From Octopus vulgaris (Eukaryota): a stretch of 64,000 nucleotides of DNA. Position numbers and translations under genes: made by a program. Below, one piece after another: positions 13,139 to 34,151 of this stretch. The stretch is from contig OX597822.1 in NCBI GenBank assembly GCA_951406725.2, positions 72,602,001 to 72,666,000 on the forward strand, given 5' to 3'. Position 1 is the first letter of the stretch; each line of letters opens with the position of its first letter. The notes beneath the pieces are model-generated. The model saw only the letters and a list, made by a program, of their open reading frames with translations. It was not told the origin of the DNA and made no database searches.

Positions 13139-13292
13139 TATAAGAAAATAGTAAAGTGTGAAAAAACGACAGAAGGCTTAAATGTTAAAAAATATATATA
13201 TTTGTGTCAAAATGTCTGGAGAATATTGGAAAAATTTTTTTTTTTTTTTTTTTTTTTCCTTTCCTTAAAATGATATAATTTTAAAATTTTTA

Positions 13293-13332
13293 AAGAAATT
13301 ACCGGTTTCGCGTGTAGCTTTTCAAATTTCTT
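13293..13332 (-). ncRNA. Minimal type-I hammerhead ribozyme (U3-A8 variant), inverted copy
   Basis: Reverse complement of 18206-18245. Confidence 0.7.
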
Positions 13333-13470
13333 GTGACGTTATGTTTATATTGCATGGAATTATCGTTGTTTTTATTTCCAGGAGATTTCTAAATAAGGGG
13401 AGGTAGTGAGTGATTTTTTCCGGTGTAGGGGAGATAATCGCTTAAAAATTTTTTTTTTCCCATTTCCTTG

Positions 13471-14927
13471 TTAATTTCTCTGTGTCAGTATGTTCGGATG
13501 GTTGAGTCTGGGTTTGTACTTTTCAATGAAGAATGTTTCCTTGTTCAGTCTCATTTGTGTTGATGATCCGAAAGCACATTGGTAAAATGGGAAGATTAAA
13601 AATTGTGGCAGTAGTTGCTTTGCGCATTTCTCAATGTGCTCACTAAAAGGTATCATTCTATATTCTAGGAATGCAATCTGTTGTCGATGCAGTGTGCATC
13701 TGCGCCTGAGTGATAGTCCCGTGGAACCCACGTAGTCTTGGTGGCAGCCCGAGCATTTAATAACATAAATTATGTTTTCAGAGGCACAAGTAAAGTTAGA
13801 TTTGATCTTAAATTTCTGTCCCTCTTTAAAGAAGAATTCTGATCCTTCCAATAGGTTAGGACATGTTGCACAGTTCGATCTACCACATTTTTTTACTTTT
13901 GCATCCGTAATTTTAGAAGACAATTTTGCCTTTGTGAGAATCTTTTAAGTGATTTAGGCTGTTTGTAGCTTTTAATGATTTGGTGTATGTTTAGAATTTC
14001 CTTTAATTTTGGGTTTTTATGAAGTATTGGTAAATTCTGGGTGATGATGGTGAAGGCTTCTTTGTTTCTGGGGTTGTATGTAGATATGTAAGGTAGTATT
14101 TTCGGGGAAGGTGTGTTGTTGTGTTGAACTTTTCTTAAAGTTTCTATGTTGATTTCTGTTGCACGTCTGATCCCATCCTCTATGAGTTGAGCTGGGTAAT
14201 GTCTGTCAATTAGGGTGTTTTTGAGTTCTTGCAGTCTAAAGTTCCTGGTATTTTGTTCTGACACTATTGTGCATATCCTTCTTGCAAGGTTGAAGGGGAT
14301 GTTTGTTTTAGTGTGTCTTGGGTGGCATGAATTAAAAAGAAGGTATTGTTTGGCGTCTGTGGCTTTGTAAAAAATGTCTGTTTCTATTTTAAGGTTAAGT
14401 TTTTTAATTAGTATATCCAAGAACGGGAGCTCCTTTTGGTTGTATTCCATTGTGAACTGTATATTTGGGTTTATGCTGTTCAATAGGTTTTTAAATTTTA
14501 GGAGTTTATCTATGTTTTCATTCCAGAGAATGAAACAATCGTCTAGGAATCGTTTCCAATTCTCTTTTATGTATTGAGAGAGGGAGTTTCCAAAGATTGA
14601 TAGAGATTCCTGGTAAATGATTATTTCCATGTATCCCATTGTTAAGTTCGCAATGACTGGTGCTGCCCTTGTACCCATAGCAATTCCGGATTTTTGACGG
14701 TAAAATGTATTGTCAAACATGAAGTGGTTATTGTGTAGGATGAATTCAATTGATTTAGTAATGAATTCCTTACTGATCCTTTTTGGTATTTCTTCCGGAA
14801 ATTGGTCTAACCAGAATTGTATTGCCTCCAGTCCATAATTATGAGGTATACTGGTATACAAGTTGACTACATCAAATGAAACCAGGATTGTTTCTTCCTT
14901 GGTTTTTTTTGGAAGGTGGTTTAACAT
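13471..14927 (-). pseudogene. Frameshifted Penelope-like RT and GIY-YIG endonuclease
   Basis: Near-identical to the 16205-18070 protein; frameshift near 13940 and further indels upstream. Confidence 0.88.
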
Positions 14928-15520
14928 ATCTAAGTCATCTCTGATATGGCTATCGATATGTTTAAGGAAGGGTTTCTCAAGAGGATGTCCATAAGTAGAC
15001 TTAGTCTGTGTGTTTCACAGGTTGGGCCAGCTACAATGGGTCGTAGTTTTAGGTCCCCCGGATTAGGTGTGTGTATGTATGTCTTTGGTGATTTTTTTAA
15101 TGGTTTCATTTATAATTTGACTTTTATGAATTTTTGGCAGACCATAGAAAAGGCTAGGTTTGCATTTAAAGTTTGTTAGGAAATCAATCTCTTTGGTTGT
15201 CAGTTCCTTTTCATGGGTTTTAATTAGTGAAGATAGAGTTTTCATTATTTTTTGTGGGGTGTAGTTGGTAATTTTTTCATAATGTAGGTCTTCATCAAGC
15301 AAGGAAATTACTTTGCGTTTGTCTTGTGTTTAGTGGGGACCAGTAGTTTTGGTTCATGGGGTAGTAGTGATTTGTGTGTGGTGTATTTCTTATCCTAGTG
15401 TCGTATTGTGCTGTATGGTGGTTGGGTCTGGTATTAGGATGTTGTTGGTTTGTAGGATAAGAAATACACCACACACAAATCACTACTACCCCATGAACCA
15501 AAACTACTGGTCCCCACTAA

Positions 15521-18070
15521 ACACAAGACAAACGCAAAGAAACACTATGTCAAGCAACATCCCACATACAAGAAGTTCGAAACAAAAATATTCCCCATAC
15601 AGAAATTTTACACACACCACAAGCATTAACAACCATAGATTCACACACACAACGATCGGAGGCAACAATACCACCACTCCCCCGACCAAATACCACACAA
15701 CCTCACAGACAACTCATACAAACAAAATTACACCCAACATTTTTTAGCCAGGGACCAGAGACACCAGGACACAGGCTGGAACCTAGTAATAAGGAAAAAC
15801 CGAAGATAATCAATCTTTCAACCAAACCTCTTTCTAACATAAAAATTGACATCCTCGCAAAAGGGCTCAAATTTACACCAACTCCACGCAGAGCAAACCT
15901 AAATGAACTCAAGGATAATATAACAGAATTTTGCAGAAAATTAAGACTAGCAGAAGCATCAAACAGTTTCAATACTGAAGATGAATCACTTGTCAAGAAC
16001 GAAAGTGAACACATCCCACACAGAGGAAGAAATAAAGATCTTGACGAATTCTGTAACCACATTGAGAACTTCCCCTACCATACTATACATAAACAGAAAA
16101 CTAACCCAAATTTTAACAATACACAATGGAAAGAACTGATAGAACTCCAAAATGATGAAGATATAACCATTAAGGAAGCGGACAAGGGAAATGCAGTTGT
16201 AATAATGGATACATCATACTACAGAAATCTTGTAATTTCCTTGCTTGATGAAGACCTACATTATGAAAAAATTACCAACTACACCCCACAAAAAATAATG
16301 AAAACTCTATCTTCACTAATTAAAACCCATGAAAAGGAACTGACAACCAAAGAGATTGATTTCCTAACAAACTTTAAATGCAAACCTAGCCTTTTCTATG
16401 GTCTGCCAAAAATTCATAAAAGTCAAATTATAAATGAAACCATTAAAAAATCACCAAAGACATACATACACACACCTAATCCGGGGGACCTAAAACTACG
16501 ACCCATTGTAGCTGGCCCAACCTGTGAAACACACAGACTAAGTCTACTTATGGACATCCTCTTGAAACCCTTCCTTAAACATATCGATAGCCATATCAGA
16601 GATGACTTAGATATGTTAAACCACCTTCCAAAAAAAACCAAGGAAGAAACAATCCTGGTTTCATTTGATGTAGTCAACTTGTATACCAGTATACCTCATA
16701 ATTATGGACTGGAGGCAATACAATTCTGGTTAGACCAATTTCCGGAAGAAATACCAAAAAGGATCAGTAAGGAATTCATTACTAAATCAATTGAATTCAT
16801 CCTACACAATAACCACTTCATGTTTGACAATACATTTTACCGTCAAAAATCCGGAATTGCTATGGGTACAAGGGCAGCACCAGTCATTGCGAACTTAACA
16901 ATGGGATACATGGAAATAATCATTTACCAGGAATCTCTATCAATCTTTGGAAACTCCCTCTCTCAATACATAAAAGAGAATTGGAAACGATTCCTAGACG
17001 ATTGTTTCATTCTCTGGAATGAAAACATAGATAAACTCCTAAAATTTAAAAACCTATTGAACAGCATAAACCCAAATATACAGTTCACAATGGAATACAA
17101 CCAAAAGGAGCTCCCGTTCTTGGATATACTAATTAAAAAAATTAACCTTAAAATAGAAACAGACATTTTTTACAAAGCCACAGCCGCCAAACAATACCTT
17201 CTTTTTAATTCATGCCACCCAAGACACACTAAAACAAACATCCCCTTCAACCTTGCAAGAAGGATATGCACAATAGTGTCAGAACAAAATACCAGGAACT
17301 TTAGACTGCAAGAACTCAAAAACACCCTAATTGACAGACATTACCCAGCTCAACTCATAGAGGATGGGATCAGACGTGCAACAGAAATCAACATAGAAAC
17401 TTTAAGAAAAGTTCAACACAACAACACACCTTCCCCGAAAATACTACCTTACATATCTACATACAACCCCAGAAACAAAGAAGCCTTCACCATCATCACC
17501 CAGAATTTACCAATACTTCATAAAAACCCAAAATTAAAGGAAATTCTAAACATACACCAAATCATTAAAAGCTACAAACAGCCTAAATCACTTAAAAAGA
17601 TTCTCACAAAGGCAAAATTGTCTTCTAAAATTACGGATGCAAAAGTAAAAAAATGTGGTAGATCGAACTGTGCAACATGTCCTAACCTATTGGAAGGATC
17701 AGAATTCTTCTTTAAAGAGGGACAGAAATTTAAGATCAAATCTAACTTTACTTGTGCCTCTGAAAACATAATTTATGTTATTAAATGCTCAGGCTGCCAC
17801 CAAGACTACGTGGGTTCCACGGGACTATCACTCAGGCGCAGATGCACACTGCATCGACAACAGATTGCATTCCTAGAATATAGAATGATACCTTTTAGTG
17901 AGCACATTGAGAAATGCGCAAAGCAACTACTGCCACAATTTTTAATCTTCCCATTTTACCAATGTGCTTTCGGATCATCAACACAAATGAGACTGAACAA
18001 GGAAACATTCTTCATTGAAAAGTACAAACCCAGACTCAACCATCCGAACATACTGACACAGAGAAATTAA
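15521..18070 (+). CDS. Penelope-like reverse transcriptase / GIY-YIG endonuclease (first Met at 16205; frame open from 15521)
   Basis: Manual translation upstream of the Met gives IINLS..LAKGLKFTP and ADKGNAVVIMD. Downstream motifs: FYGLPKIHK, LRPIV, SFDVVNLYTSIP, GIAMGT, RFLDD, LPFLDI, CGRSNCATC linker, NIIYVIKC..C..DYVGST..R..LH (GIY-YIG). Confidence 0.93.
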   Translation, partial: TQDKRKETLCQATSHIQEVRNKNIPHTEILHTPQALTTIDSHTQRSEATIPPLPRPNTTQPHRQLIQTKLHPTFFSQGPETPGHRLEPSNKEKPKIINLSTKPLSNIKIDILAKGLKFTPTPRRANLNELKDNITEFCRKLRLAEASNSFNTEDESLVKNESEHIPHRGRNKDLDEFCNHIENFPYHTIHKQKTNPNFNNTQWKELIELQNDEDITIKEADKGNAVVIMDTSYYRNLVISLLDEDLHYEKITNYTPQKIMKTLSSLIKTHEKELTTKEIDFLTNFKCKPSLFYGLPKIHKSQIINETIKKSPKTYIHTPNPGDLKLRPIVAGPTCETHRLSLLMDILLKPFLKHIDSHIRDDLDMLNHLPKKTKEETILVSFDVVNLYTSIPHNYGLEAIQFWLDQFPEEIPKRISKEFITKSIEFILHNNHFMFDNTFYRQKSGIAMGTRAAPVIANLTMGYMEIIIYQESLSIFGNSLSQYIKENWKRFLDDCFILWNENIDKLLKFKNLLNSINPNIQFTMEYNQKELPFLDILIKKINLKIETDIFYKATAAKQYLLFNSCHPRHTKTNIPFNLARRICTIVSEQNTRNFRLQELKNTLIDRHYPAQLIEDGIRRATEINIETLRKVQHNNTPSPKILPYISTYNPRNKEAFTIITQNLPILHKNPKLKEILNIHQIIKSYKQPKSLKKILTKAKLSSKITDAKVKKCGRSNCATCPNLLEGSEFFFKEGQKFKIKSNFTCASENIIYVIKCSGCHQDYVGSTGLSLRRRCTLHRQQIAFLEYRMIPFSEHIEKCAKQLLPQFLIFPFYQCAFGSSTQMRLNKETFFIEKYKPRLNHPNILTQRN

Positions 18071-18205
18071 CAAGGAAATGGGAAAAAAAATTTTAAGCGA
18101 TTATCTCCCCTACACCGGAAAAAATCACTCACTACCTCCCCTTATTTAGAAATCTCCTGGAAATAAAAACAACGATAATTCCATGCAATATAAACATAAC
18201 GTCAC

Positions 18206-18245
18206 AAGAAATTTGAAAAGCTACACGCGAAACCGGTAATTTCTT
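18206..18245 (+). ncRNA. Minimal type-I hammerhead ribozyme with U3-A8 core variant
   Basis: aagaaat-TTGAAAA-gc tacac gc-GAAAC CG GTA-atttctt; 7-bp stem I and palindromic ACCGGT stem III. Confidence 0.72.
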
Positions 18246-18459
18246 TAAAAATTTTAAAATTATGTCATTTTAAGGAAAGGAAAAAAAAAAAAAAAAAAAA
18301 AAAATTTTTTTCCAATATTCTCCAGACATTTTGACACAAATATATATATTTTTTAACATTTAAGCCTTCTGTCGTTTTTTCACACTTTACTATTTTCTTA
18401 TATATTCACCCACGTGCTTTACCAAACAAACTTTCTTATCTATACATATATATATATAT

Positions 18460-19573: not shown

Positions 19574-20531
19574 TTAGATTTCCCTTGGGGGCTGCCCAGG
19601 TCGGAGCAATCTCAAGATTAATCAGCCGAAATTGCGAAGATGATCCGGTTCTTGACTGATGACTGAGGGCTTCGAATGTCCCGTCCTGTGGTTCTTGTGT
19701 CGTCTTCTAGGTGTTTAACGTTCTTGTCCCAGTTTGTATATATTTTTTACTTTTTACATATATAATGGCGGCTTCGTATCCACACCTCTGTCCTTATACG
19801 TAAGTATATTTTCTCCAACATTGGTACGACTCTTGATCGGTCTTTTTCTCTCTCTTTCTCCTCCTTCCTTATTCCCCTTCTTTCTTTCTTTCTCTCTTCA
19901 TCCGTTCCCCCTCCTACGCTTCTCTACCTCTCATACCTCCACTCCCCTCGACCTGTCTCTTTCTTCTCCTCCCCTGTCCCCCTTCTCTCTCTCCTCATCT
20001 GTCCCCTTCTCCTGTCTTTTGTCCTCACGTGACCAGCTAGCCACTACTGGGCAGCCTTTTCGTATCCAGCAGTCGTTGAAGCAACACGTTTTTGTTTGTT
20101 TCCCGCGGCCATAAGGCACAACGCCATAAGCCAGCCCCAACTCAACTCGTCCTGTCGAAAGACCTTTGTCCTACGTCCTGGTTTTGTTTTTTATCCTTAC
20201 CTTTATTGTTTTTACGTTTTTGTATTCTTATTCGTGCTTTCCTTATTGTTTTCACGTATTTCTGCATTTTTATTCGTGTACATCGTTCGTTTTCCGTCCT
20301 TGTGTTGTATACATTCGAAGCTTTCTTCCAAGGGATCTAATGCGCTTGGCTTAGATTTCCCTTGGGGGCTGCCACGGTCGGAGCAATCTCAAGATTAATC
20401 AGCCGAAATTGCGAAGATGATCCGGTTCTTGACTGATGACTGAGGGCTTCGAATGTCCCGTCCTGTGGTTCTTGTGTCGTCTTCTAGGTGTTTCACGTTC
20501 TTGTCCCAGTTTGTATATATTTTTTACTTTT

Positions 20532-20539
<8 letters not shown>
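19574..20539 (+). mobile_element. Non-autonomous terminally redundant element, 777-nt unit with ~188-bp direct repeats
   Basis: 19574-19762 is nearly identical to 20351-20539; non-coding CT-rich interior; permuted hammerhead core in both repeats; TA flanks. Confidence 0.8.
20311..20456 (+). ncRNA. Candidate permuted hammerhead ribozyme, copy B (predicted cleavage after AUC 20386-20388; partial twin at 19581-19679)
   Basis: ATC 20386-88, GAAA 20405-08, CTGATGA 20433-39. Stem III gcaat/attgc, stem I tcaaga/tcttga, stem II ggctg/cagcc. Extra helices gtcgga/tccggt and acattcgaagc/gcttcgaatgt; hairpin ccaaggga..tcccttgg. Confidence 0.72.
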
Positions 20540-20581
<42 letters not shown>

Positions 20582-20846
20582 AATATTGACGGAGATAAAT
20601 TAATATTAATTTTAATATCAATTTAAAACCAGTAGTCCAGCATTCAACAAATCTGAGGAGTCTGAGAAAATTCAAATATATGTGTATATTGGCAGGGCTG
20701 GCCTGCTAGGTAGCCGGCCAGAATGCTAGAAGAAGATCATCAACGATCAAACTACAAGGGAAATTCTCTAGAGGAAGAATTCAGCGAACACCAGAACCAA
20801 CTTTGGCGGGTAGGACATATGAAAAATTAAATAAAAAACAGACTTA

Positions 20847-20923
20847 AATGTATACCTCGGTTTCGGTCTTAACAAAAAGAATTACTTGCATAATTCAAGT
20901 GTCCGTGACTTCATCAGTACATT
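20847..20923 (-). ncRNA. Type-I hammerhead ribozyme, inverted copy
   Basis: Reverse complement of 21459-21534. Confidence 0.65.
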
Positions 20924-21458
20924 CGGTCTTCGAGATGCAAACTGAAAGTCTAACCCCAGCTCTCTGTGTCAAGACAGACACGTGCTTAGTCTTACTGATT
21001 ACATCGGGAATAAAATTTCAAATATCTTGGCTCTGGCGCGCTAAGAGACTCCTGAAGCGAAGGGCTGCAGTGAATAATTCACTGCGGGTAGTGCTTACAA
21101 CAAGGGAACGTATTTATTTAAATATTTAGCAGGCCAGCCCTGCCAATATACACATATATTTGAATTTTCTCTGACTCCTCAGATTTTTTGAATGCTGGAC
21201 TACTGGTTTTAAATTGATATTAAAATTAATATTAATTTATCTCCCTCAATATTTAAATATTTAAATAAATACGTTCCCTAGTTGTAAGCACTACCCGCAG
21301 TGAATTATTCACTGCAGCCCTTCGCTTCAGGAGTCTCTTAGCGCGCCAGAGCCAAGACATTTGAAATTTTATTCCCGATGTAATCAGTAAGACTAAGCAC
21401 GTGTCTGTCTTGATACAGAGAGCTGGGGTTAGTCTTGCGGTTTGCATCTCGAGGACCG

Positions 21459-21534
21459 AATGTACTGATGAAGTCACGGACACTTGAATTATGCAAGTAA
21501 TTCTTTTGTTAAGACCGAAACCGAGGTATACATT
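21459..21534 (+). ncRNA. Type-I hammerhead ribozyme with extended stem II
   Basis: aatgta-CTGATGA-agtc..[gaatta/taattc hairpin]..gacc-GAAAC CGAG GTA-tacatt; perfect 6-bp stem I; first stem II pair mismatched. Confidence 0.65.
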
Positions 21535-21691
21535 TAAGTCTGTTTTTTATTTAATTTTTCATATGTCCTGCCCGCCAAAGTTGGTTCTGGTGTTCGCTGA
21601 ATTCTTCCTCTAGGGAATTTCCCTTGTAGTTTGATCGTTGATGATCTTCTTCTAGCATTCTGGCCGGCTACCTAGCAGGCCAGCCCTGCCA

Positions 21692-21758
<67 letters not shown>

Positions 21759-25064: not shown

Positions 25065-25905
25065 TGTGTGTGTGTGTATACATACATATATATATATATA
25101 TATATATTAGTGTATATACTCAAGAACGCAGAACCATAGCATCCGTATTCACACACACACACACACACACACATGTATAAAAATATTAGTGTGTACATAA
25201 TTACACCTGTAAGTGAACGAGACTTTTTATAGAACGAGATCATTTTTTATAGAAAGGAATATCTCTTAAAATACCTACAGATATTATGACCAGATTTGTA
25301 GTGATCACTCTGGATATATACAACTGACCATGCATACCCATTCTATGTGTCCCACTTTTCTTTCTATGTTTACTTTCCCCGCGTTGAATTATTTCTTTCA
25401 TCTTGCTTTCTCAACATTATTTATAGTAAACTATGCATGAAGAGTATTTTCGCGTTCAATAGCTCTAATACGCTTGTAGTAACTACTTTGCTTTTGACGA
25501 TAATGTGGTGCAATATAAGATTTAGAATATGTGTGTGCATGTGTACATGGCTCCAAATTATACAAGAAACAGAAGACCACATACACTTGCTAGCTTCCGG
25601 TATACGGAGCTTTTAACTGGTAGCACTTGCATGTGCAAGTTGTTTGCAAGACATCTAACACTTTGTGGTAGGTAACCACTGACAAACCGGAAAGACGGTT
25701 AGGCATCTTGGAAAGACAAGAGGACTGCTCGGAAAGACCAGCGGATAATAAGAAAGACTATCGACACCAGGAAAGACTGGCGGAGGCTGCGGACTTACAA
25801 TCCTCGCCTCTGTAATATATTGTAACGGAAATAACTGGAAATGACAGCCCCACGATTGACCGAGAGGGCGGAGTCGAGAATCAATCAAACCCAGTCAGCA
25901 CGGGA

Positions 25906-26480
25906 ATGACCTTGGAAACGAATATGATTATTCATTCGAACAGCGAACGAAATGCAAACAACTTTGGATGCAAGCTGTGTTATAGAACCTTTGCAACTGT
26001 GAGAGGCTTGAAGATACATCAGGGAAAGACTTGTGAGAAGAGGACAGAGCAGTGTGGACAGATCGTAAAACACGTGGCAAATCATCCCCGGACTCAAACC
26101 CCAGCGGATCGATAAATGCTACAGCAGAGACCTCTTCACGTGATGAAACTACAAGTCTTGACACTGGTGCATCGGATAATACTCAGAGGAAACCGAGGGT
26201 TTTGTGGCCTGCTGCTACTGAGAAAGTGAAATATAAAGAGTTTGAAAACAAGGTTTGTCGGGCTCTTTATAAAATGACAGGCTCTACAGTGGAGAAACTG
26301 GGTAAATTATCAAACTCAATATACGATATAGGACACAGCGTGAGACGACTGTTTTTATCGATAGGCTTAACTCATCTTAAAGTCAATACCACCATGACTG
26401 ATATCCAATCTACAGTGGAGAAGGCTAGCCACTGGATTTGGTTAAAAAGAGACGATGAGCGATGGCTAGAAGTATATTGA
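25906..26480 (+). pseudogene. Remnant ORF of HERO/R2-like element (frameshift near 26055, large internal deletion)
   Basis: ORFs 25906-26115 and 26052-26480. Confidence 0.65.
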
Positions 26481-26503
26481 GTTCTTCATAACCAGCAGCT
26501 GAT

Positions 26504-26615
26504 CTAGCAAGCGGGGCCTCATATCAGTGAGGGGGGCCGGTGCGCATTGATGCCGTCGAGAGGTAGGCCCCGAAACGGCGCGCATTCTCTCCTGATGACC
26601 CCATACACTTGCTAG
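26504..26615 (+). ncRNA. Candidate permuted hammerhead ribozyme, copy C (predicted cleavage after GUC 26555-26557)
   Basis: GTC 26555-57, GAAA 26572-75, CTGATGA 26592-98. Stem III tgccgt/acggcg, stem I gagag/ctctc, stem II ggggcc/ggcccc. Extra helices gtgcg/cgcat and gggg/cccc plus ctagcaag/cttgctag; hairpin cctca/tgagg. Confidence 0.75.
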
Positions 26616-26676
26616 CTTCCGGTATACGGAGCTTTTAACTGGTAGCACTTGTATGTGCAAGTTGTTTGCAAGACAT

Positions 26677-26706
<30 letters not shown>

Positions 26707-26728
<22 letters not shown>

Positions 26729-26876
26729 CGACGGGCTTCTTTCAGTTTCCGTCTGCCAAATCCACTCACAAGGCTTTGGTCGGCCCGGGGCTATAGTAGA
26801 AGACACTTGCCCAAGGTGCCACGGAGTGGGACTGAACCCGGAACCATGTGGTTGGTAAACAAGCTACTTACCACAC
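26707..26876 (-). mobile_element. SINE family 1, 5' half
   Basis: Matches the tRNA-like head region. Confidence 0.8.
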
Positions 26877-29492
26877 AATATATATACAATATATATATAT
26901 ATATACACACACACATATATATACATATATAAAATGAGAAGTGTCTATTTAGTTTAGTGAGTGTGTGTGTATGTGTGTGTGGATACGTCGTACACTAGCC
27001 GTAAGAGTTTGATGATGTAAGGGGTGAATTGTCCTGATAAATTATGATAGCAATAATCCTGCAGCCGCTGTATGTTGCTAATGACGAAGATGATAGGAAA
27101 GAGGAGCAACAGAAAGACAAAGGGTGCTGATAGAAATATTGAACTGCAATTATAATTTCTTTTCCGTTTGCTTTCCATACAAGCCTGACAGTGCTGCTTG
27201 AAGACAAAACAATATATAGATCTATTTCGGTTTTATTGTGCCTTAAGATAATATGCCAATTACATTTCTTTTCAAATTAAAATTCCAATCAGCAGAGAAA
27301 ATAACTGGTGAGATTAAATCATCAAGTAATTAGTTTTATTTATCTTCCACCTGAGTTATCTTCGTTTTAATTATTTAACAAATAAAAAACTTTGTCAGAT
27401 ATAAATTAATTATTTACTTTGGCTTAAAGTATTATGATGAAATTTTTATTTAAATGACAGTGCACGAGCCATTTCATAAAATGTGTCATGCTGAAAACAC
27501 TATTTTAACTAACATTAATTAATTAATAACTTAGAAATCTTGGATAGGGTGTTTCATTGAATTGATCACCAGAATGTTTGCTCAAAGCGTTAAGTTGCTA
27601 ACAATCTAATTCTATGAGTATGAATTTAGTTGGTTAAATTACTGAATTCTCGTCGTCGACACCAACGGAGAATCCACAAAAGATTCTTCATCTTTGTACC
27701 TAGTAGAAGAAATGAATAAAAAATCAAACTGTGAGTCATTTATGCCTCGTTAATATCAAGATTAGAATTTTGAAATCTAAACGCACAATAGTTTTTTTTA
27801 AGATTATGAAGAGAATTAAATATAGGCAGTGTCTGCCATGTTATGGTGCTAATTCGTAACTTGATACGGTGAGATTGGTGAGTTAATTACCTTATCTGGG
27901 ATACAGATCTATGATCTTAGGCACTATGCTGTTGTGGTCTTTATTCATTAATTGCTTTATAAAGCCAAGGTTTCATTTGCTAATGTCATTAACGGTATTG
28001 CCGATAACCTGAGGTCATACACGGAATACATTTTGTTTCTCCTCAGCCGGCCATTACCCCGTTATTTTTGTTACATTTATAACAAAACATAATGATTAAT
28101 TATTTCTATAGTCATGTAAAAATATGGAAAATACACAATAGAGGAAAACAAAATTCAAATAGTGATGTTTGATTAATCAATTAATTATTTGATATAATTG
28201 ACAGGCTTAGGAAAATAAAATTAAAACAAATAAGAATTAAAATCTCTATAAATCTTAAGCATTAAACGAAAATCTGTCTTTTTCTGAAAAAAGTTGTTGG
28301 TGAAGAGGAAAATAAATCTGTCTAAAATTTATTTTTGAATTTCTCTTTGAATTTCTGTAAATAGCTAATGTGATTTTATGGAACGTGAAAAGGAAAACGC
28401 ATCAGTCTGGGGCAGTATAACATGCTATGTGAACCAATAATTTCCTGTTGCGTCACTACACTAGGTTTGAGAGTTAGAAACATAGAAGTGAATGATGCAG
28501 AAGGAAGACAAGCAAATAAGAATACTTACAATAGACATGCTCACGCAGACACACCGCTGACGCAAAGCACGCATATATTCCTACACAAAAGAAACGAAAG
28601 ACGCTCGTAACGTTATCAGGAGCAGCATTACTGTCGTATTTCCTGTTATATTTGGATTTTGGAAATAAACGTAGCTATGCCTATATACATTGTGCTTTAT
28701 TTTGTTGCCACCGCATAGTGATCCAAGATTAATTTATTTGAGGCCTGATGATTTAAATGTGTTAAGAAAATTTGATAAAAACCGGAAAGAAAATGAAAAT
28801 ATGAACCTAATACTTTGGGATATTGCTGTATAACTTTCTAAAATATTTGGCTCATTATATAAAGGATTCTCAATGTAAATACAATCTCCATATTTAAGTA
28901 CTCTATAGATTAAGTACAACAGCGGGTAGTATGGTTACTCTGATTAAGGGTGTTCTCAACTACCTCGTATTTGATTGCCTTTAATGGAGTCCACTCCGAT
29001 TCAACTGTTTTCGACAAAGTTATCGGCTTCTAAAGAAATCGACCGATCGACTCATGATTTCCGGCTGTATCAACCATCACAAACCATGTATAATGGTTTC
29101 TTGGTATCTTAATTTTTCGAATATTCACGAGGAAACGGACACGGTATTTGTATTGAAACTGAGTTAGAAATACGACACTGGATATGGTGAAAGATGCCCT
29201 TTAATGGCACTCAACCCCATTAACGGGAACCATGTAAAAGTATAAACGTCCTTTATGTGTTTATTGGTGATATATTTTCATATTTTGGACAAATGTTATC
29301 ATGTGTTGTCCTGATTCGTTATATCTTTGCTGTGGCAATGTCAAGAAGGGATGATGGGAAAAAATATTTTTATTAAACTTAAATCTAACACAGGGTCACA
29401 TATATGCCATTTATTAAATAATATAAGTAATCAGTTAGACGGAACCACGACGAATCCCGTTGAAGACATACATACATACATACATACATACA

Positions 29493-33445: not shown

Positions 33446-33625
33446 GGACACACACACACACACACGCATACGTATATGTGTGCATGTATGTATATAAATA
33501 CACACATACACAAATATATATATATATATATATAATATTATTAGAGACAAAACCACTATTTTGCAAAACAAACAAGGAAAGACTTAATCAATACATAAAA
33601 TTTTAATAAAAAGTCAAAAAAACCG

Positions 33626-33668
33626 CCACTACAATTGTTTCTTGTCCTGATCGACAATCTTCAGGTGG
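33626..33668 (-). ncRNA. Minimal type-I hammerhead ribozyme, inverted copy
   Basis: Reverse complement of 33846-33888. Confidence 0.8.
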
Positions 33669-33845
33669 ACTTCCAATCTAAAATATCAATATTTTAAAAT
33701 ATAAAAATAATAATTTTAAAATAATTAAAGTATTAATGAAAAAATATAAATATATATTATATATTTATATTTTTTCATTAATACTTTAATTATTTTAAAA
33801 TTATTATTTTTATATTTTAAAATATTGATATTTTAGATTGGAAGT

Positions 33846-33888
33846 CCACCTGAAGATTGTCGATCAGGACAAGAAACAATTGTAGTGG
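33846..33888 (+). ncRNA. Minimal type-I hammerhead ribozyme
   Basis: ccac-CTGAAGA-ttgtc gatcag gacaa-GAAAC AATT GTA-gtgg; palindromic ACAATTGT stem III. Confidence 0.82.
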
Positions 33889-34151
33889 CGGTTTTTTTGA
33901 CTTTTTATTAAAATTTTATGTATTGATTAAGTCTTTCCTTGTTTGTTTTGCAAAATAGTGGTTTTGTCTCTAATAATATTATATAATATTTTACTATAAA
34001 ATTGGATTTAATCCTAACTCTGATTTTTTCCCTGTAAATTTGGATTTATTCCCTAATATTTATTATTATTATATATATATATATATATATCCATCTACCT
34101 ACCTACCTACATACCTACCTACCTACCTACCTACCTACCTACCTACCTACA

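Follow-up and report, generated by a model that had tools for sequence, protein, structure and literature searches.

The sequence analysed here, referred to as the window, is a stretch of 64,000 nucleotides from the Octopus vulgaris genome (contig OX597822.1). Its plus strand contains an internally deleted and frameshifted member of a young non-LTR retrotransposon family of the RLE type, which we provisionally call HERO-like. Using one natural copy of the family as a unit ruler (r1-3738), the window copy is composed of r3653-3738 joined to r1-678 and then, across a deletion with a 5-nt microhomology, to r3391-3738. The 5' end of the insertion (25572..25657) is an overrun, a partial upstream copy of the element's own 3' end (r3653-3738) identified by repeat comparison and alignment to the ruler. 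It is followed by a 5' UTR (25658..25815) whose hairpins have GAAAGA as their loop (at 25690, 25711 and 25771) and by an N-terminal piece of the open reading frame (25816..26115), which encodes a single C2H2-like zinc finger at approximately 25963-26022 (Pfam zf-C2H2_4, E 0.0011, below the curated cut-off). The frame is lost near 26060, where comparison with other copies by eye places a 4-nt loss. The remaining N-terminal region (26037..26333) runs up to the internal deletion, which spans r678 to r3391 (approximately 2.7 kb) and removes the reverse transcriptase (RT), the CCHC knuckle and most of the RLE. Downstream of it are the C-terminal tail of the RLE domain (EKASHWIWLKR) with the stop codon (26334..26480), a split hammerhead-like motif with S-G-C block order (26504..26615), and the 3' terminal segment with the fixed 3' end (26616..26679), after which a TA microsatellite begins without a target duplication. 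The predicted cleavage (and re-ligation) site of the motif lies after a GUC triplet (26557..26558), 122 nt upstream of the fixed 3' end, as judged by analogy with hammerheads and from family 5' ends at this point. The original prediction described a zinc-finger N-terminus fused to EKASHWIWLKR; the two are indeed joined on the DNA by the 2.7-kb deletion, with the 5-nt microhomology at 26329-26333 as the junction, but their frames differ, the tail lying in the ORF 26037-26480 and the finger in the ORF 25816-26115. Directly downstream of the TA run there is a common short interspersed repeat (26710-26877), of which the window holds several further copies.

A DNA search of the genome returned 2,591 first-look candidates for the family, 40 of which were scored, and a 22-nt core pattern gave 700 exact genome matches against 0 for the control. 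Open frames of 1,112-1,175 aa were found in 4 of the 20 loci fetched, the intact unit being 3,738 nt long. Within one ORF, the protein of the intact copies combines an N-terminal C2H2-like finger, an RT (RVT_1, E 7e-19), a CCHC knuckle and a PD-(D/E)xK stretch. R2 proteins are its best solved relatives and align across the RT, the knuckle and the nuclease, bearing out the RLE-type assignment that had been made from the peptides of the window. Among 8,000 scored candidates there were 749 homologues; the ten clusters that were looked up include named ones from Branchiostoma, Aplysia, Astyanax, Merluccius and Acipenser, and no relative was present among the viral contigs searched. The published HERO elements (PMC4640811, PMC9004415; here and below, papers are cited for the portions of their text that were available) likewise have a single ORF with zinc finger, RT, CCHC and RLE, are not rDNA-specific, lean towards microsatellites, and occur in lancelets and fishes. 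The octopus family and its relatives show the same non-specific or microsatellite-biased insertion and the same presence in lancelet and fishes. Considering that taxon range, dispersed insertion and microsatellite bias match published HERO, we take a HERO-like RLE non-LTR lineage as a lead; the label is set from descriptions rather than HERO reference sequences, and the tree (FastTree) holds relatives of the family only. The 28S rDNA target of the R2 clade is absent, as the flanks of the family copies are dispersed and unrelated, and the GIY-YIG nuclease and telomerase-like RT of Penelope-like elements (PLEs) are absent from the family protein.

Ten internally deleted copies (L001, L002, L007, L018, L022, L024, L025, L059, L185 and L186) join r680-1210 to r3110-3420 with breakpoints that differ among them, in a sample that is biased in that the search query was itself a deleted copy. 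This pattern, with its differing breakpoints, suggests repeated template switches.

To describe the ends of the insertions, copies were aligned to the ruler. In 30 of 30 copies, taken as the first pattern matches in genome order, the 3' end falls at r3727-3738, and most of them are plain 5'-truncated stubs, as is usual for RLE-type elements. Over 57 distinct 3' junctions (L004 among them, in fact an internal join), copies continue to follow the template for 6 bases beyond the anchor; the match stands at about 0.6 over 3 more and then reaches background. The long copies, defined as those reaching the first 700 nt and picked by similarity searches rather than as a random sample, number 53. In 23 of these the sequence runs seamlessly into the previous unit, with overruns of 9-1,977 nt, so the family departs from the absence of terminal repeats that is typical of RLE-type non-LTR elements. 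The 5' ends of the 53 copies are scattered, 17 of them lying beyond the predicted cut, with no pile-up at the unit border: none is within 5 nt of the border and none within 3 nt of the cut. Long overruns are seen in both subfamilies and in distant relatives, where the 3' UTR runs into the ORF start or recurs at the contig start (e.g. L119 and L122, whose 3' ends are followed by unique flank), although some of the permuted or redundant metagenome contigs may reflect repeats collapsed in assembly.

The repeat in the window is one of these overruns. Positions 25572-25657 and 26594-26679 match over 86 nt with 3 mismatches (96.5%) at an offset of 1022, and the inner 78 nt, from 25580, contain 1 mismatch. 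The 78-bp repeat and the 1022-nt unit of the original prediction are thus real as a repeat and as an offset, but the repeat length is not a fixed property, being set by the overrun into the previous unit. The view that the repeat is element sequence was correct, since the same sequence ends copies at unrelated loci in all 30 cases; a target-site duplication is ruled out, the repeat being the family's 3' end. Nor was a general target-site duplication found among 58 copies, 14 of which share at least 7 nt between their flanks compared with 5.7 in shuffled pairings; of these 14, nine are flanked by microsatellite at both ends, and in one the shared stretch is the overrun itself. A fixed-length LTR is ruled out by the range of the overruns. 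Independent insertion of one copy ahead of another is likewise ruled out, by the seamless joins, the lack of 5' ends at the border and the subfamily-diagnostic base, which is the same upstream and downstream in all 12 scorable copies of the 18 examined (nine of one type, three of the other). This agreement indicates that the upstream and downstream parts derive from one template lineage; ranking whole pieces by best match, the copy's own partner was uniquely best in only 2 of 18. Given that the overruns are variable and seamless, the repeat is a Penelope-style partial tandem and not a target-site duplication, and with its hammerhead the family has the make-up of a Penelope-type pseudo-LTR element. 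Inversions are rare, both strands being represented at 2 of 107 loci.

The hammerhead-like motif was modelled on the plus strand of the window. Its core bases are GUC (26555-57), GAAA (26572-75) and CUGAUGA (26592-98), so a hammerhead in permuted order in the 3' UTR, as originally proposed, is found with every core base in place and in an S-G-C order that is not a circular permutation. The model comprises an outer helix (26504-11/26608-15), a bridge P4 made of GGGG/CCCC (26513-16/26599-602), a hairpin P5 (26517-21/26528-32), stem II (26533-38/26566-71), P6 (26540-45/26580-85), stem III (26552-56/26575-79) and stem I (26558-63/26586-91). Stems I and III have 6 bp each, and no stem II adjoins A9 (hammerhead position numbering is used throughout, for A9, G10.1, C11.1 and the A15.1-U16.1 pair). 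The strand cttgctag within the repeat, previously read as the P4' strand of the ribozyme, extends the bridging helix on its outer side; the bridge itself consists of GGGG/CCCC. In the consensus the elements follow one another as P4, hairpin P5, stem II 5' strand, P6, stem III with UH, stem I, a short linker, stem II 3' strand, GAAA, stem III, P6', stem I', CUGAnGA and P4'. What is new in this layout is the detachment of the stem II 5' strand from CUGAnGA, the gap being bridged by an extra helix.

Taken alone, the window sequence is no proof of this fold, because neither single-sequence folding nor Rfam supports it. By minimum energy, the region prefers a different structure (-44.8 kcal/mol, compared with -25 to -33 for nested subsets of the model in which pseudoknots are unscored), and its stability does not exceed that of shuffled sequences (z -0.29). 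Rfam has no ribozyme match in the window region or in 16 relatives, which is expected for a permuted form. HDV-like and twister readings do not fit by eye and are without an Rfam match, and a scan of the whole window gave only microsatellite-type noise among the 150 of 271 matches listed. No minus-strand hammerhead was found in the window or on the reverse strands of the relatives.

The case for the fold comes from its conservation. Within the family the core is mostly intact, with GUH in 69, CGAAA in 68 and CUGAnGA in 63 of 70 contexts, some of which are double-counted from overlapping loci. From a scan of metagenome contigs, 80 loci were kept of 162 confirmed relatives that are 35-69% identical, and 33 of the 80 were scorable, having the C-terminus and a tail of at least 190 nt; the other 47, among them the motif carriers L091 and L169, are uncounted. 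A strict descriptor comprising the core, P4, stems I and III and the detached strand of stem II matched 25 of the 33 relatives, none of the 33 reverse strands and none of 660 shuffled 3' UTRs from the relatives. The helix order predicted from the window recurs, with compensatory changes, in the 3' UTRs of 25 of the 33 scorable relatives, and both autonomous copies and diverged relatives carry the fold. Four of the eight misses contain a near match by eye (L098, L106, L149, and L118 with a mutated core). The remaining four (L094, L134, L140 and L152) have no motif and sit in four separate branches of the tree among carriers, from which we conclude that the motif is dispensable or replaceable. 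By eye their 3' UTRs look structured, with no Rfam ribozyme match, and replacement ribozymes are possible there.

Allowing for near duplicates reduced 34 matching motifs to 25 that are less than 80% alike. The G10.1-C11.1 pair is present in all 25, even though the descriptor does not require it, and beyond the required minimum 19-25 of the 25 motifs pair at further positions (positions 3-5 of stem I, 5 of stem II, 4-5 of stem III and 5-9 of P4), with several pair types at these positions. The cleavage triplets are GUC (9), GUU (6), GUA (6), AUA (2), CUA (1) and AUC (1). In an alignment of 24 motifs made on sequence only, the invariant columns are those of CGAAA and CUGAnGA, which the descriptor partly asks for. 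RNAalifold without guidance recovered stem I and no other stem; stems I-III are 89% paired with a covariation score of 0.57, compared with 0.14 in shuffles and 0.07-0.14 in slid controls, a control biased in the fold's favour since the 24 motifs came through a pairing-based descriptor. The motif thus has the hammerhead core (CUGAnGA, GAAA, and UH with A15.1-U16.1) surrounded by stems I, II and III that covary, and it lacks the usual three-way junction, in which stem II directly follows A9. We consider it almost certain that the fold is real and under selection.

The closest described layout is the type-SGC hammerhead (HRIMA-1; Eckert et al., 2023, PMC10085705), of which the original paper was the only one in the literature searched. 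Both motifs have the S-G-C block order with all the core bases, a short linker between stem I and II strands, and an extra helix that joins the outer arms. In type-SGC, CUGAnGA runs straight into the stem II strand, whereas the octopus motif has that strand upstream of the cleavage block and bridges the distance with P4/P5; block C is thus not an unbroken series of stem I strand, CUGAnGA and stem II strand. In the available text, Eckert et al. (2023) took the A9-G10.1 link to be unbreakable and assumed the split layout away. In none of the 25 distinct motifs does the base after A9 pair with C11.1, P4 starting there instead, and with this link missing activity is not to be assumed.

LINE proteins bind their own RNA in the 3' UTR region. 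A fold that serves RT recognition, with cleavage lost and the tandems due to another cause, would agree with the position of the motif, with the break of the covalent A9-G10.1 link in 25 of 25 distinct motifs and with the failure of every Rfam hammerhead model to match. Such a protein-binding site is very unlikely, given that the invariant letters are exactly the catalytic core, accompanied by cleavable triplets, and that the same fold occurs in unrelated elements, including a Naiad PLE with another RT, where a portable enzyme fits better than a protein-specific site. By analogy with known hammerheads, the motif is probably self-cleaving.

Genomic 5' ends bear on cleavage as well. Among 70 copies, three have their first base precisely at the predicted cut, preceded by unrelated DNA, compared with 5 ends in total across the 40 upstream positions (Poisson p 0.0003-0.004 if the background is taken as 0.13-0.3). 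Genome-wide, 8 matches have three non-template bases before the cut compared with 2 at a control position two bases on (p=0.055), a comparison that rests on one control position and in which all 10 have T before the junction. Two of the 8 overlap the three starts already counted, and the other 6, like the 2 control matches, were seen for three flanking bases only. With a single control, a shared T and such short flanks, some of the 8 may be mutated uncut copies. The excess of 5' ends at the predicted cut is suggestive and no more.

The other 67 of the 70 copies are continuous across the predicted cut, and three accounts of the template meet here. One is linear read-through, in which RNA longer than a unit is made from a partial-tandem master with most of its motifs uncut, the ribozyme being slow or acting only in the trimming or turnover of transcripts. 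In agreement with this account, 67 copies are intact at the cut, masters with long overruns are present, the most stable structure differs from the active one, and PLE hammerheads are reported to cleave poorly in vitro (PMC4209133). In such a process, however, the overrun could only shrink from one generation to the next, yet overruns reach 1,977 nt, in both subfamilies and with counterparts in distant relatives, and the strict conservation of every catalytic base is left without a reason; we regard linear read-through as unlikely.

Template jumping is a property of R2 RT, and jumps usually leave untemplated bases. Since the closest solved relative is an R2-type RT, a linear unit RNA released by two cuts, left unsealed and primed internally, could imitate a circle if the RT jumped from the RNA 5' end to its 3' end at the cut, and the copies that start exactly at the cut are what a linear cleaved template predicts. 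A jump would be needed for every copy longer than 122 nt, though, and no bases are gained or lost at the cut junction in the continuous copies shown, making an unsealed template quite unlikely.

A circular template, by analogy with PLEs, is the account we slightly favour. A copy whose overrun extends past the ribozyme would carry two ribozymes, and its transcript would be cut at both. RtcB, or the ribozyme itself, would then seal the resulting unit-length RNA, with 5'-OH and 2',3'-cyclic phosphate ends, into a circle. After nicking AT-rich DNA, the RT-RLE protein would prime at a fixed position within this circle, 122 nt beyond the sealed junction, from which the RT would read back through the junction and round the circle and stop at random. 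Most products would be 5'-truncated stubs, and some would exceed one unit, renewing the two-ribozyme masters; copies that stop at the cut would come from unsealed template. The circle would account for template continuity at the cut and at the unit border, for renewed overruns and for the few stops at the cut site. Cervera and de la Pena proposed the same cycle for PLEs (PMC4209133) and showed that RtcB circularises animal retrozymes (PMC7229834). The window copy itself is a non-autonomous member of an RLE retrotransposon family; its 3' UTR would carry a ribozyme of a new layout, and its template would, on balance, be a circle.

The split motif is not confined to this family. The original prediction expected the fold to be shared with non-coding elements of the window, and it is present in two unrelated non-coding repeat families on the plus strand (19575-20540 and approximately 1050-1860), which form partial tandems of units of about 780 nt with the same split S-G-C motif and have predicted cuts at 19611, 20388 and 1629. 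Each has approximately 3,500 first-look candidates in the genome, some copies carrying inverted 5' pieces. An autonomous partner for the two was not found. Sampling of 30 loci from the PLE family of the window and 30 with GIY-YIG did not show a link to PLEs: it gave type I or other hammerhead candidates, and one neighbour on the opposite strand.

Eight Naiad PLEs carry the flag 'HHR_half_core' in Craig et al. (2021; PMC8557442), given because no descriptor fitted them; the text available gives these half cores no fold. In the 3' UTR of the Octopus consensus Naiad_Ovul from the supplement of that paper, we recognised the same split layout by eye. The derived motif has 267 exact matches in the same genome, where the genomic copies confirm the sequence; no Naiad ORF was found at five matching loci fetched with longer flank. 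At one locus two copies of the Naiad-type motif start at the cut after a TA run, and 0 of 40 others clearly do so. The observation concerns Naiad_Ovul and the supplement entry preceding it, together with loci L313-L317 and L358-L397. There is about an even chance that a whole RLE clade of LINEs (HERO-like; molluscs, lancelets and fishes) replicates via a ribozyme-made circle, with a portable split hammerhead that occurs also in Naiads and non-coding satellites and would explain the 'missing' hammerheads of at least some Naiads.

At least two further, older HERO-like families in the octopus genome retain the motif (L253-L282). The 3' UTR of one of them is, by eye, approximately 90% like a metagenome locus (L129), possibly through horizontal transfer.

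The family shares with R2 (PMC3774820) an RLE-type protein and a self-cleaving ribozyme at the element end, cleavage being predicted in the octopus case. R2 has an HDV-like fold at the 5' end that cuts the RNA from the 28S co-transcript, whereas the octopus family has a hammerhead core within its 3' UTR and no 28S target; the window region and 16 relatives gave no HDV-type Rfam match. With PLEs, including Naiads (PMC4209133, PMC8557442), it has in common a fixed 3' end, 5' truncation, partial tandems, a bias to TA microsatellites, a hammerhead near the 3' end and a proposed circular template; it differs from their telomerase-like RT with GIY-YIG, mostly type I hammerheads and frequent inverted 5' pieces. 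Non-LTR retrozymes (PMC7229834; bioRxiv 10.64898/2026.07.22.740005) are also tandem hammerhead units, processed to circles and mobilised in trans, and the two ~780-nt non-coding repeats of the window resemble them. Retrozymes are non-coding, 170-400 nt long, of type I and tied to PLEs, whereas the octopus family is an autonomous 3.7-kb RLE element with S-G-C order. In operation the family resembles a PLE pseudo-LTR system built on an R2-like protein; it is neither R2 nor a PLE nor a retrozyme.

In the literature searched, which included few subscription journals and no Repbase Reports, there is no description of a hammerhead, terminal redundancy or partial tandem in HERO elements, and the available portions of PMC7650587, PMC13580325 and PMC5678591 make no mention of ribozymes or tandems in HERO. 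Terminal repeats are said to be missing from LINEs, and PLEs, with their partial tandems, have been contrasted with them (PMC8557442). If our reading holds, the family would breach this textbook division, in which LINEs have a linear template, no terminal repeats and HDV-type 5' ribozymes, and PLEs have partial tandems and hammerheads. A natural hammerhead architecture invisible to present descriptors and Rfam models would be added, and non-circular permutations would move from metatranscriptomes to animal genomes, with hundreds of copies per family. With intact copies that are nearly identical, the long-standing rolling-circle model for partial tandems can be tested directly using an R2-like protein; this class is already used for gene insertion, and RT priming inside an RNA circle would be of practical interest.

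Several neighbouring features of the window deserve mention. A Penelope-type element (13230-18308) encodes RT and GIY-YIG in an 849-aa frame (15521-18067), has a long inverted 5' copy and belongs to a very young family, the best among the 150 matches listed being at 99-100% identity. An inverted-repeat element (20676-21705) carries in each arm a hammerhead-like core (approximately 21430-21530 on the plus strand, and its mirror) with a long stem II loop and a possibly classical block order. At 33529-33985 lies a perfect inverted repeat of 228 nt whose arms are 1 nt apart, which may be an assembly artefact or a fold-back insertion. Finally, the 5' UTR of the HERO-like element has a conserved array of hexaloop hairpins, GA(A/G)AG(A/G), at 25685-25780 of the window and in the leaders of relatives. 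In 31 relatives, 37 such hairpins were counted over 12,445 nt of sequence preceding the ORF, with one or more in 22 of the 31, compared with 4 in 46,245 nt of ORF body and 0 on the reverse strand of the leaders; possible roles are in protein binding, translation or as a promoter.
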